From NCBI GenBank assembly GCA_964016885.1, contig OZ024742.1, positions 212,040,001 through 212,104,000 on the forward strand: a stretch of 64,000 nucleotides of DNA, in the 5' to 3' direction. The notes beneath the pieces are model-generated. The model worked only from the letters and a program-made list of their open reading frames with translations. It was not told the DNA's origin and searched no databases. This document shows positions 33,786 through 58,519 of the stretch, one piece after another. The stretch's first letter is position 1. Each line of letters begins with the position of its first letter. This stretch comes from Eledone cirrhosa. Taxonomy: Eukaryota. Position numbers and translations under genes: made by a program.

Positions 33786-33899
33786 CAGTATTAACAATTG
33801 TTTCACTGATTAAGTTGTCTAAAAATTGCTGAACACATGAAGCTGTGCCACTCAATTTTAAATACGTTGTTAGCTTAACCAGATCATCAGAAGGGACTG
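33786..33899 (-). ncRNA. Hammerhead-like motif with long stem II and decayed stem I (Penelope-type terminal repeat)
   Basis: CUGAUGA U CUGGUUAAG...CUUAAUCAG U GAAAC AAUU GUU AAUACUG. A partial duplicate lies at about 33945-34000. Confidence 0.55.
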
Positions 33900-34373
33900 T
33901 TAAAAATATGCTCAAAGTTTACGAATTCAAATTACAACATGAATTGTGTCACTCAATTTTAAATACAATGTATGCCTAATCAAATCATCAGAAAAACTGA
34001 TTAAAATTATACACGGCGTTCGTAATATACTAGGAAAATTCAAATCACAACATCAGTAATAAAGAAAGAAGAAAAAAGAAAAAAAGAGAGAGAGGAAAGG
34101 AAAAAAAGAAGAAAAAAGAAAAGAGAAAAATAAAAATAATAATTAGTTAGAATGAAGATGATATATACATATTGAGGACCAAATAAATTAAATTAACTGA
34201 TACAAAAGACAGAGAAGCAAAAACCAACCAAACAGTGTGTTCTGTTATTAATTCTGGCATTATTATTACACAAATATGACCCTCCCCAAGTATAACAATA
34301 TATATATATATATTGTCAGCCGTTAATATGCATAAGGAAAGTATATACTTTCAGACGTTCAACCATCTGGCAG

Positions 34374-34427
34374 GAATGTATATGTTGCTGATGATAGCTA
34401 ATAAGCTTGAAACTCGTACAGCGTTCC
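34374..34427 (+). ncRNA. Type I hammerhead ribozyme, unit 1
   Basis: UGUUG CUGAUGA UAGCU AAUA AGCUU GAAAC UC GUA CAGCG; predicted cleavage after 34418. Confidence 0.75.
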
Positions 34428-34815
34428 TTTGTCAGTGTTGAACAAATGAGCAACGATGTGCTAGACACTGTACGGCTTAATTCGGGATGTTTGTTTACAA
34501 ACACACTGGGCATTATAATAAATGTTCGGTGAATCCATACGTACATATATATGTGTGCATGTATGTATATATATATATATATATACATATATATACATAC
34601 TACTGTACGTCTGTATACATATATGTATGTACGTATACATACTTATATTTAAGTAACAGCCGTACTAAGAGTCAGAAATGAAATTTTGTTTCATTTTTTT
34701 CGTTTATCGTTTTCGGTACCCCGGCTGATTAACTCACTCGATATGCAAATTGGGCTGCTCAGCCGTTAATATGCATAAGGAAAGTATATACTTTCAGACG
34801 TTCAACCATCTGGCA

Positions 34816-34870
34816 GGAAGGTATACGTTGCTGACGATAGCTAATAAGCTTGAAACTAGTACAGCGTTCC
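34816..34870 (+). ncRNA. Type I hammerhead ribozyme, unit 2
   Basis: GGAA-GGUAUA-CGUUG CUGACGA UAGCU AAUA AGCUU GAAAC UA GUA CAGCG-UUCC; predicted cleavage after 34861. Confidence 0.8.
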
Positions 34871-35118
34871 TTTGTCAGTGTTGAACAAATGAGCAACAAT
34901 GGTTGCTAGACACTGTACGGCTTAATTCGAGATGTTTGTTTACAAACACACCGGGCATTATAAATGTTCGGTGAATCCATACGTACATATATATACATAC
35001 TACTGTACGTCTGTATACATATATGTATGTACGTATACATACTTATATTTAAGTAACAGCCGTAATAAGAGTGAGAAATGAAATTTTGTTTCATTTTTTC
35101 CGTTTATATATATATATA

Positions 35119-36060
35119 CATGCTCCGTTAGGTGTGTAATAGTAATATACGTGAACGGCAACTCATAAATGAACTAAGTGAGAAATTAGGAATAAAAGGC
35201 ATCAAATGCTGTTTACTCGAGAGAAAACTACATTGGTATGGTCACGTGATGCGCATGAAAGACGTCAGCTGTATAAAAAAAAGTGCAGGGCGATCAAAAT
35301 TGATGGAACTACGGAGTAGGCACACCCAGAAAAACCTGGGATGATTTGATAAATTCCGATCTTACACACACCTCTCCAAAACAATGTCACTGGACCGAGA
35401 TCTTTGGCGCTACGCAGTAATACAGAAGACCCGCCTTGCCTAAGTACAAAGTGAAACCTACAGTCAGTAGGCACTTAACCAAAAATACGCCCCCAACCCA
35501 CTACCCCTAGGTGCATGGCTTAGTGGGTAGAGCATTGGGCTTGCAATCGAAAGGTTGTGAGTTCAATTCTCGGACCAGGTGATGTGTTGTTTCCTTTAAC
35601 AAGACACTTTATTTCATGTTGCTCGAGTTTACTCAGCTGTAGAAATGAGATGATAGGACTGGAGTCCCTATCATTAAATTACCCAAGACACCTTCTATGA
35701 GATATACCTTGGAGGAGGTCAGCTAACCTGCATAGGTGTGAGCTATCAAACACACAAACTACCCCTACCCCCATCAACCCCACCCCTTTCTCTGTAAAGT
35801 TATGTTGGTACCACAGCATCCAGTCCTAAATAAATGAGGTCGTGTAGGTGTCACTACAAAAAAACTCAGTCCACGCAGTTATGTGGCCTTGTAGGTAACA
35901 CAGTAAAAACCTCCCAGTCCACACTGTAAACTTGGTTTGTGTTAGGAAGGAAGGGCATCCAGACAGTCCCATACAAGCAAGACAAACAATCTTGCCTCAA
36001 GTGGGACAATTCCCGTCTAAACCCATTCTAACGTGGAAGATAGACGTTAAACAATGATGA
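35119..36060 (+). mobile_element. RTE LINE 3' fragment interrupted by a CORE-type SINE (about 35510-35675)
   Basis: [14 protein letters not shown]...[10 protein letters not shown] peptide, RTE 3' UTR and short (GAT)n tail. SINE head TGGCTTAGTGG...GAGTTCAATTCTC lies inside. Confidence 0.88.
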
Positions 36061-54606: not shown

Positions 54607-55151
54607 ACTGCTCTGTAAATCATCTGATGTTTTTACATTGAGCTACTTAACTTACTGGTAATAAGGTAGTAATACATTACTGCCTACCACTATTTAGGGT
54701 GTGTGTAAAATACTTACAACTGCTTAAGGTTTTGTGTTTACATAACCATAAATAGTATAACTAATACTATATATATATATATACATATATATATATATAT
54801 ATACATATATATACATATATATACATATATATATACATATATATATATATATATACATATATATATATATATATACATATATATATATATATATACATAT
54901 ATATATATATATATACATATATATATATATATACATATATATATATACATATATATATATATATACATATATATATATACATATATATATATATATACAT
55001 ATATATATATACATATATATATATACATATATATATATATATACATATATATATATACATATATATATATATATACATATATATACATATATACATATAT
55101 ATATATATATACATATATATATATATATACATATATACATATAGTATATAG

Positions 55152-56228
55152 TAGTGGGGTCCCACAAGGCACTGTGTTGGGCCCACTTCTCTTCATCATC
55201 TATATTAATGACATCACTGACATCATCAAACACAGCAACATTAAAATTTTCGCTGATGATTCCAAGCTCCAAAAGGTCATCAATGGCGTGGATGACCGGA
55301 TAAGCCTTCAGTCAGACCTACTGGCTGTTACCCAATGGGCGGAAAAGAACAACATGTTACTGAACGAAGACAAATTCGAACTGATCCACTTTGGAAAAGA
55401 GGATGCTCTGAAACTCCCGTACTCCCTTCCCTCCGGGGAAACTCTCGTGGCATCTAACAACATCAGAGACTTGGGAGTAACCGTGGACAGCAACATAAGC
55501 TGGACCACGCATATAAGCAGCAAAGTTGACATGGCCCGCAGAATGTGTTCTTGGATCCTCAGAACCTTCCAGTCGAGAGATTCCCACACCATTATCCTTC
55601 TCTTCTCTACTTTCGCCCGACCACACCTTGAATACTGTTGTCCACTGTGGTCTCCCCACACGAAACAAAGTATCATGAAACTGGAAGCTCCTCAAAGGGC
55701 AATCACGAAAAAGATAGATGGCATGTCAGACCTTGACTACTGGGGTCGATTAGAAAACCTGAAACTTTACTCACTCCAACGTCGCCGTGAGCGTTATATT
55801 ATCTGCATGATGTGGAAAATGTTCCATCATCACTGCCCAAATGATGTTGGCATCGCCTTCAAGATACACCCAAGGCTTAGGCCCCGTGCTATCCGTCCCA
55901 TTCAAAAATCTAAATCGCAACTCATAACAACAATACGGCACAATTATTTCACCTCAATCGGCCCTGCTCTCTTCAACATCACACCAGGACACGTCAAAAC
56001 AGAAACTGACCACTCAAAATTCAAGAAGTCTTTGGACAAATTCCTCCAAGGAATCCCGGACAAACCACCCACACCCGGATATGTCTCCGCAAACAGTAAT
56101 TCTCTTCTCGAATGGGCCATGGTGCCCAAATCCTGAATTGAAAGACTTCGCCAGGTGGTGCTATTAAGTTAGACATGGCCTGGGCCAATACTGGCCAAAA
56201 CATTTCAAAGTTATTCAAAGTTAAAGTT
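55152..56228 (+). mobile_element. 5'-truncated CR1-type LINE (second family), open to 56136
   Basis: [25 protein letters not shown] and [14 protein letters not shown] motifs; (TTCAAAG/AAAGTT) tail; TA-flanked. Confidence 0.93.
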
Positions 56229-58068
56229 ATATATATATATATGTATATATATAAATATATATATGTATGTATATATGTATATATATACATATATATATAT
56301 ATATATACATATATATATACATATATACATATATATACATATATATATAAATATATATATGTATGTATATATGTATATATATACATATATATATATACAT
56401 ATATATATACATATATACATATATATACATATATATATAAATATATATATGTATGTATATATGTATATATATACATATATATATATATATATACATATAT
56501 ATATACATATATACATATATATACATATATATATATATATACATATATATATATACACATATATATATATATATATATATATATATACATATATATATAT
56601 ACACATATATATATATATATACATATGTATATATATATATATATATATATATATACATGTATATATATATATATGTATATATATATATATATATACATAT
56701 ATATACATACATATATATACATATATATATATACATATATATACATATATATATATATATACATATATATATATATATACATATATATATATACATACAT
56801 ATATATATATATATACATATATATATATACATACATATATATATATACATACATATATATATATACATATATATATATACATACATATATATATATACAT
56901 ACATATATATATATATACATACATATATATATATACATACATATATATACATATATATATATACATATATATATATACATATACATATACATATATACAT
57001 ATATACATATATATATACATACATATATATACATACATATATATATATACATATATATATATACATATATATACATACATATATATATATACATATATAT
57101 ACATACATATATATATATACATATATATATATACATATATATATATATACATATATACATATATACATATATATATATATATATATATACATACATACAT
57201 ACATATACATATATATATATACATATATATATATATATATATACATATATATATATATATATATATATATACATATATATGTGTATATATATATATATAT
57301 ATGTGTGTATATATATATATGTATATATATATGTATATATATATGTATATATATATATATATATGTGTGTATATATATATATGTATATATATATGTATAT
57401 ATATGTATATATATATATATATGTATATATATATATGTATATGTATATATATATATATGTATATATATGTATATGTATATGTATATATATATATATGTAT
57501 ATATATATATATATATATATATATGTATATATATGTATATGTATATATATATATACATATATATATGTATATATATATATATATATATGTATATATATGT
57601 ATATGTATATACATATACATATATATACATATATATATATATATATATACATATATATATACATATACATATATATATACATATACATATATATACATAT
57701 ATATATATATATATACATATATATACATATATATATACATATATATACATATATATACATATATATATACATATATATACATATATATATATATATATAT
57801 ATACATATATATACATATATATATATATACATATATATACATATATATATATATATATACATATATATACATATATATATATATATATATACATATATAT
57901 ACATATATATATATATATATACATATACATATATATACATATATATACATATACATATATATACATATATATACATATACATATACATATATATATACAT
58001 ATATATATATACACATATATATATATATATATATATATATATATACACATATATATATATATATATAT
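56229..58068. repeat. 1.8-kb degenerate (TA)n array
   Basis: Read directly; contains blocks of C-type and G-type variants. Confidence 0.97.
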
Positions 58069-58230
58069 TGTTATACTTTGGGAGGGTCATGTTGCCAATA
58101 AGAAACACACGCACCAGTTGCTTTCACTTCAATTTATTATATATTTATAAATTTATAAATTTACAAATTTACAAACTTATAAATTTCTGGTTGGTTGGTT
58201 GGTTCCACAACCAGATAGTTGTTTATATAT

Positions 58231-58275
58231 AGTCATAGTCCTTTCGTCACACACTCTGTGACCTCTTCAGTGACT
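58231..58275 (-). ncRNA. Minimal hammerhead ribozyme
   Basis: AGUCA CUGAAGA G GUCAC AGAGUGU GUGAC GAAAG GA CUA UGACU: perfect 5-bp stems I and II. Confidence 0.7.
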
Positions 58276-58452
58276 GGGGATTCCTTTCTTCGTTTCTGTG
58301 CCTTTCCTTTCTTCTATCCTACGCCATTTGAAACAAAATGGTGTAGCATAGAAGAAAGGAAAGGCACATGATATGTTGAATTAAAACTGATATGTTGATT
58401 TAAAACTGCACTATCCACAAGTGTTCTTTAGCCTTCATATCATGTTCTCCTG

Positions 58453-58519
58453 TTTTATCTGATGAAAACACAAATATTATTGCATGATGATGTTTGTTTT
58501 TGAAATGCGCATAATAAAA
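58453..58519 (+). ncRNA. Type I hammerhead ribozyme
   Basis: UUUUAU CUGAUGA AAAC...GUUUUU GAAA UGCGCA UA AUAAAA: 6-bp stem I and palindromic stem III AUGCGCAU. Confidence 0.72.

Follow-up and report, generated by a model that had tools for sequence, protein, structure and literature searches.

The 64-kb stretch of Eledone cirrhosa DNA analyzed here (contig OZ024742.1, C3:212040001-212104000; hereafter called the window) combines exons of RAPGEF1 (C3G) with long (TA)n arrays and, between the arrays, short islands that carry type I hammerhead ribozyme motifs. A minus-strand RAPGEF1 exon at 33317 to 33489 was placed by protein matches, the exon preceding it, and assembled contigs. Its 57 amino acids (33319 to 33489) showed identity to RAPGEF1 of Octopus species and Argonauta in all four matches, contigs from three sequencing runs spanned 33317 to 33489 exactly, and the loose contig ends matched neighboring exon sequence in two of the three runs; Pfam gave no match in this exon. 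More RAPGEF1 exons lie near 22048 to 22215, 16666 to 16767, and 2477 to 2677. Because the preceding exon is at C3:212177900-212178091, the hammerhead islands from 33490 to the window end fall within a RAPGEF1 intron of about 104 kb, and the proposal of an earlier note on this DNA that the ribozymes are intronic is borne out. One of several (TA)n arrays with C/G interruptions occupies 36060 to 40214, and others lie at 43242 to 44321, 48945 to 49552, 54030 to 55150, 56228 to 58068, and 58552 to 58882. The hammerhead islands are the 3' pseudo-long terminal repeat (pLTR) ends of high-copy families and not unique sequence. We hold it very probable that they are truncated 3' ends of eight unrelated families that each have a hammerhead motif of their own; the pile-up here is likely due to insertion machinery that favors TA repeats.

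Motifs were sought with a descriptor that, in its final form, covered type I hammerheads with a C3-G8, U3-A8, or U4C core and allowed stem II domains to be long and stems III to be short or hairpins. A first, strict form recovered 58453 alone in the window; when the foot of stem II could contain a mismatch or an additional base, the retrozyme copies and 58231 were recovered as well, and tolerating core changes added 54474 and 39154. The whole window gave eight matches, seven of them between 33.7 and 58.6 kb, and the shuffle check proposed in the earlier note (100 local dinucleotide shuffles of that region) gave a mean and a maximum of 0 against those 7. All the sites listed in that note were located, and seven are full type I hammerheads by the descriptor: 34382 to 34424 and 34825 to 34867, both plus strand and belonging to a retrozyme (stems III ACUCGU and ACUAGU), 39154 to 39191 on the minus strand (ACCAGU), 53231 to 53385 on the plus strand (ACGAUCGU), 54474 to 54520 and 58231 to 58275 on the minus strand (ACAGCUGU and AGGACU), and 58451 to 58521 on the plus strand (AUGCGCAU). 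The minus-strand motif at 33785 to 33900 retains its core intact, along with a stem II of 9 bp and the stem III palindrome ACAAUUGU; it fails the descriptor on stem I alone, the proximal part of which is 2 bp, and another copy of its family (locus L104) passes. The half motif that had been noticed near 43205 on the minus strand is real (43201 to 43239). It retains the 3' strand of stem II, GAAA, a 6-bp stem III, GUC, and the 3' strand of stem I, and it begins past the first box; the full form, with a U3-A8 core and a 6-bp stem III, is present in locus L147, so that a plain UUCG hairpin was rejected as an explanation.

The core boxes (CUGANGA, GAAA, and UH, or a known covariant) are canonical in six motifs, with one U3-A8 core (39154) and one U4C core (54474). 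We rejected the idea that the latter two are decayed, since other copies of each family show the same core. Apart from three retrozyme copies, BLAST showed no relationship among the cassettes, as had been claimed. By manual tally, a hammerhead is present in about 8 of 16 non-array islands, most others being pieces of RTE/CR1-type long interspersed nuclear elements (LINEs) or other repeats; the earlier description of the islands as hammerhead cassettes therefore fits about half of them, not most. The tiny, often palindromic stems III that had been described are likewise partly as stated. The five named palindromes exist, and five window copies have the short palindromic helix III, unstable as a monomer, of minimal dimer-type hammerheads, but the stems III of 34382, 39154, and 58231 are imperfect, and in the 43205 family stem III is instead stable. 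By computation, no short stem III folds by itself. Perfect palindromes gave self-duplex energies of -4.8 to -12.9 kcal/mol (-6.4 to -12.9 for those of 8 to 10 nt), and cross-family heteroduplexes were all weaker than -3.5 kcal/mol; cross-family dimers on the host strand were rejected on these weak energies.

Seven of the eight families are linked elsewhere in the genome to open reading frames (ORFs) for Penelope-like reverse transcriptase (RT) and GIY-YIG domains, five of Hydra type and two of Neptune/Nematis type. The ORF upstream of the pLTR is intact in five families and broken in two (58453 and 33786). All three intact Hydra-type ORFs (53231, 54474, and 43205 families) share RWR, DKT, CxCX5C, CxxC, and CxH motifs at 40 to 46% mutual identity, and the 58453 and 33786 families were placed as Hydra type by similarity to them. 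The remaining two intact ORFs (39154 and 58231 families) share a CX2-5CxxC linker with Neptune and Nematis, and their motifs suggest one of these two clades. In the five intact ORFs, Pfam confirmed GIY-YIG in one and gave weak RVT_1 in two, with no match in the Hydra-type ORFs; a homologue search for the Hydra-clade placement returned mostly unnamed proteins. Tandem and inverted insertions, 5' truncation, and an optional tail, all traits of Penelope-like elements (PLEs), are present across families. The linkage check suggested in the earlier note thus came out positive for seven of eight families, the islands being neither single-copy nor unlinked, and its assignment to Penelope-like or retrozyme classes is upheld by the ORFs and by tandem repeats. 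Its estimate of about seven independent families was right in the independence but not in the count, which is eight (seven Penelope-like and one retrozyme), and its view of the islands as unique is contradicted by the high copy number of each family.

Exact pattern counts for the families were paired with a reversed-pattern control, which was 0 for 54474, 58231, and the retrozyme. The 3' pLTR end at 33725 to 33940 on the minus strand, apparently from an older Hydra-type PLE, has a hammerhead with a 9-bp stem II, an insert of about 55 nt, and a weak stem I; its family gave 1596 candidates, of which 40 were scored (93 to 96% identity), and has broken Hydra-type ORFs upstream in loci L194 and L195. 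A degenerate partial duplicate of this cassette, the 5' half only, lies at 33945 to 34010 on the same strand (81% over 67 nt). The putatively Neptune-type 3' pLTR end at 39020 to 39225 on the minus strand carries the U3-A8 core as UUGAAAA. Its family (968 candidates) has a 775-aa ORF in locus L100 with GIY-YIG above and RVT_1 below the Pfam cutoff, and the center of stem III is CCGG in 17 and CCAG in 9 of 26 copies. The half hammerhead belongs to a 5'-truncated, Hydra-type pLTR (43102 to 43240, minus strand) of a family with 896 candidates and a 795-aa ORF in locus L119.

Another of the Hydra-type insertions in the window, also 5' truncated, extends from 49553 to 53437 on the plus strand. It retains the last 173 aa, the endonuclease end, of its ORF (49553 to 50071), a 3.3-kb 3' untranslated region (UTR), and the hammerhead with a 116-nt stem II domain. 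Its family (1119 candidates) has an 830-aa ORF and forms 6.06-kb tandems and inverted pairs, and all 40 scored copies were 100% identical. The UTR (50070 to 53230) has its own TA/TG microsatellite tracts, so that long insertions of this family each add microsatellite DNA. The minus-strand hammerhead with the U4C core (CCGAAGA) is in an inverted Hydra-type pLTR pair at 54436 to 54767, the plus arm of which consists of the hammerhead 3' half plus tail and nothing more; the family shows 2,101 exact pattern matches, an 832-aa ORF, and 4.19-kb tandems. The Neptune/Nematis-type 3' pLTR end at 58069 to 58369 (minus strand), with a short inverted 5' arm, belongs to a family with 14,292 exact 35-mer matches and an 874-aa ORF in locus L095, and the Hydra-type 3' pLTR end at 58370 to 58552 (plus strand) belongs to a family with 140 candidates, a broken ORF in locus L096, and a 3.72-kb tandem. 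These last two elements, from different PLE groups, meet 5' to 5' at 58360 to 58400 with no TA spacer, possibly by twin priming on two templates or by nested insertion. A comparable join between the 58231 family and the family of the island at 53600 was seen in locus L032.

The eighth family is a retrozyme-type repeat. A tandem dimer of its unit of about 430 to 445 bp lies at 34316 to 35107 on the plus strand and contains the hammerheads at 34382 and 34825; a third hammerhead copy, at 7498 to 7540 on the minus strand, lies outside the interval treated in the earlier note. The genome holds 11,961 exact 27-mer matches, with tandems of 420- to 433-bp period. Tandem noncoding units of 150 to 450 bp, each with a type I hammerhead, define non-LTR retrozymes, and such units were found here. 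Shared with the metazoan non-LTR retrozymes described by Cervera and de la Pena (2020, PMC7229834) and in a preprint (bioRxiv 10.64898/2026.07.22.740005) are noncoding tandem repeats a few hundred bp long, low GC content, and one type I hammerhead per unit with a 6-bp helix I and a 4-bp helix II. In contrast to those, many copies here are monomers or inverted pairs with PLE-like ends, and the window copy is intronic, whereas the preprint reports exclusion from introns in Xenopus. Two more retrozyme-type tandem families were seen in random blocks of the genome, at L143:6144-7898 (unit of 311 bp, stem III CGCG) and L211:510-1020 (unit of about 325 bp, stem III UGCA).

The Penelope-like families resemble the minimal hammerheads described from PLEs (Cervera and de la Pena 2014, PMC4209133) in type I topology, an extra nucleotide after A9, a short palindromic helix III, the pLTR position, the U3-A8 variant, the predominance of solo or inverted truncated copies, and the presence of many families per genome. 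They differ in stem II domains of up to 116 nt and in a U4C core fixed in a whole family. Relative to the Hydra clade of C-terminal endonuclease-bearing (EN+) PLEs (Craig et al. 2021, PMC8557442), of which molluscan members are known, the shared features are RW[K/R], DKT, the CxCX5C linker, CxxC and CxH around the endonuclease end, pLTR hammerheads, and (TA)n insertion. The differences are RWR here and RWK there, units of 3.7 to 6.1 kb against less than 3 kb, 3' end points about 80 to 170 nt apart against a 30- to 40-bp tail, and five families in one 25-kb stretch. With Neptune and Nematis elements in the same account, the two other families share the CX2-5CxxC linker before a C-terminal GIY-YIG and a microsatellite bias, and the 39154 family also shares DKG. 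The Anolis Poseidon element PAc (Frangieh et al. 2024, PMC11167929) is from a different clade and also has an AT-rich target, a hammerhead in the pLTR/ORF junction region, and two RT start sites that yield two 3' end points plus tail, as here, where the spacing is longer.

Insertion into (TA)n, as in the Hydra clade, was seen in most of the copies compared: of 220 copies from these families, 179 have a TA array downstream, at a distance of no more than about 400 nt. Most families have two modal 3' end points, fixed and adjoining (TA)n; past the anchor, these are at 27 and 105 nt in the 43205 family, 57 and 191 nt in 53231, and 30 to 31 and 121 nt in 58453. The TA-rich landing sites proposed in the earlier note are thus well supported. 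From published PLE biology, the endonuclease would nick (TA)n, and reverse transcription would begin inside the pLTR, just downstream of the ribozyme, usually aborting or inverting within a few hundred bases. With its position a short way upstream of the RT start, the ribozyme would tend to be kept even in the shortest insertions, and because an insertion leaves TA at both sides, new targets would remain. In tandem source elements, two identical motifs may pair through their palindromic stems III so that unit-length RNA is cut out. Lone copies in the intron are predicted to be mostly inert and largely silent, because no stem III occurs twice among the motifs on the host sense strand and the family with a stable stem III (43205) is truncated here. 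Low or protein-dependent cleavage is reported for such motifs (PMC4209133, PMC11167929), and the PAc hammerhead cleaves only when protein is present, and insertion in vitro can proceed without this hammerhead (PMC11167929).

The elements might instead make or extend the TA arrays, if a telomerase-related RT copied a short terminal template repeatedly, so that the arrays would be tails and not targets. Most family 3' ends do adjoin TA, and at 3' junctions of the 54474 family (L085, L086, and L090) a 7- to 9-nt terminal unit is reiterated two to four times before (TA)n, which suggests slippage or reiterative copying at RT initiation. Yet simple insertions in the window have TA at both ends, hammerhead-free LINEs occupy the same arrays, and (TA)n targeting is already published for Hydra elements, with a microsatellite bias for Neptune (PMC8557442). 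The C/G polarity of adjoining arrays, 66 against 60, shows no bias by element strand, and polarity was rejected as a sign of RNA editing or of element-made tails. We consider this alternative unlikely and favor arrays as targets.

A second alternative is that the site is a special hotspot, or that the host keeps the cluster to regulate RAPGEF1 pre-mRNA through cleavage, cotranscriptional intron turnover, or circular RNA. The host sense strand of the intron does hold five full motifs (33786, 39154, 54474, 58231, and one at intron offset 83139) and the half motif at 43205, and the TA zone of the intron is about 50 kb long. Beyond the window, the intron has some 15 kb of nearly pure TA array at C3:212108000-212123000 (L048 and L050), after which comes an inverted pair of another U3-A8 hammerhead family, with stem III CUACGUAG. 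For the background, 10-kb blocks were taken at round coordinates from 27 large contigs, 119 in all. These held 77 motifs, 60 in the first 80 blocks and 17 in the next 39, or 6.5 per 100 kb; 6 of the 77 came from one tandem, about 2 of the first 60 look spurious (L103 and L120), and shuffled blocks gave 0 matches (three shuffles for the first 80 blocks, five for the next 39). An array lay within 300 nt of 63 of the 77 motifs; for positions drawn at random from the first 80 blocks the figure was 15.6%. Motif count followed TA fraction (rho 0.59): 25 TA-rich blocks held 43 motifs and 76 TA-poor ones 17. By resampling, the 7 motifs of the 25-kb region exceed unselected blocks (P = 0.026) but not TA-rich ones (P = 0.17), and neither the 8 motifs in the 64-kb window (P = 0.13) nor the 9 descriptor matches in the whole 104-kb intron (P = 0.28) depart from background. 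As counts follow TA and arrays make up 39% of the region, against 6.7% of the sample, the cluster matches expectation from its TA content. In addition, identities of up to 100% mark the copies as young and their families as still amplifying, the 33786, 39154, and 43205 motifs of the window have been weakened or truncated, and the sense strand offers no compatible stem III pairs. A special or host-maintained site is accordingly very unlikely. The site is ordinary; such clusters are common in the genome and result from shared (TA)n targeting, and what the locus shows, PLE ends nested in a TA-rich intron, is typical and known biology. An exceptional site, as the ribozyme-dense intron of the earlier note would imply, is not supported, and of the convergence of families on one TA-rich site that it proposed, the TA-rich landing stands while the site specificity gives way to a genome-wide pattern. 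Chance matches in AT-rich, low-complexity DNA, to which weak folding energies, the lack of an Rfam match, and the two or so spurious background hits might point, have a negligible probability and are refuted by 0 matches in all shuffles of window and background, by ORF linkage with a fixed motif position in the pLTRs of ORF-bearing elements, and by the compensatory U3-A8 core in two window families and others.

Several results weigh against our reading of the islands as hammerhead-bearing ends of PLE and retrozyme families. Rfam at gathering threshold gave no hammerhead match in the window or eight loci. At E ≤ 10, none was among the 150 of 526 matches listed, where miRNA matches to TA repeats dominate; to our knowledge, Rfam models miss minimal PLE hammerheads. 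Seven of the eight cassettes fold no better than shuffles, the 53231 cassette alone being more stable (z = -5.7). The stem III of the 58231 family is nonpalindromic, with a self-duplex energy of -1.7 kcal/mol, and for the 58453 family formal covariation was not above column shuffles (147 of 500), with 99.1% of stem cells paired in 18 sequences. No ORF partner was found for the retrozyme family, the clade labels rest on sequence motifs and not on a tree with reference PLEs, and tuning of the descriptor on motifs from the window itself biases the background comparison in the window's favor.

The variant cores are family properties. U3-A8 was found in 25 of 26 copies of the 39154 family and in 6 of 6 of the 43205 family, and is known in Schistosoma PLEs (PMC4209133). 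U4C was found in 24 of 24 copies of the 54474 family, a young one, with 3,797 exact genome matches to the C4-core pattern, and all 8 distinct homologues, the most divergent at 82% identity, keep it. Within this set stem III changes from CAGCUG to CAAUUG, a two-sided change that keeps the palindrome. U4C lowers activity in vitro yet permits viroid infectivity (PMC3088659). A literature search found no report of U4C in PLEs, although Lünse et al. 2017 and the supplements of PMC4209133 and PMC8557442 may list it.

Islands without a hammerhead occupy the same arrays. A full-length LINE at 45350 to 48945 on the plus strand, which we take to be of RTE type from its domain order and tail, has a 1066-aa APE-RT-PHD ORF and a (TGA)n tail. 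The ORF (45350 to 48547) is intact, with a PHD finger after the RT domain, and a near-identical copy at 58885 to 62021 is frameshifted; related pieces lie at 40215 to 41165, 41285 to 42995, and 58885 to 62425. A LINE 3' fragment at 55147 to 56228 on the plus strand, presumably of the CR1/L2 clade, matched Pfam RVT_1. The plus-strand 3' end at 34160 to 34312 is from another repeat family; its terminus resembles that of 58231, and this copy has no hammerhead. The TA-flanked repeat at 53599 to 54030 is abundant, with 22 matches in 16 of the 119 random blocks at up to 96 to 98% identity, and a 57-bp island in a TA array (38469 to 38525) has one weak relative, in locus L049. The Rfam gathering scan gave only tRNA-like matches to short interspersed nuclear elements (SINEs); the one at 35510 to 35577, within a repeat, is probably a SINE head. 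Fragmented ORFs at 18194 to 19979 resemble a decayed DNA-transposon transposase.

Extrapolated to the 3.0-Gb genome, the background sample gives 1.9×10^5 hammerhead motifs (bootstrap, 1.3 to 2.6×10^5), or about 65 per Mb. The scaling is supported by three families with exact genome counts, for which 11 motifs were observed in the sample and 11.3 expected. The 77 background motifs fall into 34 sequence clusters and comprise 61 C3-G8, 11 U3-A8, and 5 U4C cores. Published counts are about 2,000 plus 1,300 in Schistosoma, 4,000 in the coelacanth, and 9,000 in Xenopus (PMC4209133), and 5,000 in a mussel and up to 120,000 in the axolotl (PMC7229834); the comparison is indicative only, because those surveys used other descriptors. 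A literature search found no survey of octopus or cephalopod hammerheads or Penelope elements, although the supplements of PMC4209133 and PMC8557442 and Lünse et al. 2017 may list cephalopod motifs. A 2026 paper on Octopus vulgaris repeats describes 31 recently active Penelope-like families, and the word "ribozyme" is absent from its accessible portion (PMC13282606). A further family in the random blocks (L145:5764-6271) has a long, stable stem III hairpin and is predicted to be active as a monomer.

We tentatively suggest, as a possibility somewhat short of even, that this octopod genome surpasses every animal genome described so far in hammerhead density (about 65 per Mb, some 2×10^5 motifs, over 30 sequence families). 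Hydra- and Neptune-type elements whose ORFs are intact would have driven this in simultaneous bursts, one of them spreading to thousands of copies with a U4C core, and family-specific stem III palindromes may act as a code that restricts cleavage to an element's own tandem partner, so that long introns tolerate many ribozymes. The genome-wide abundance and the U4C family are more worth following than the locus itself. If the extrapolation is true, a 100-kb octopod intron would typically hold several hammerhead motifs, and how pre-mRNAs escape cleavage becomes the question. The genome supplies PLE families that are young and retain intact ORFs, along with natural C3-G8, U3-A8, and U4C core variants and hammerheads of both the dimer and the stable-stem-III type, and with these one could test directly whether transposition requires PLE hammerheads or carries them as passengers.

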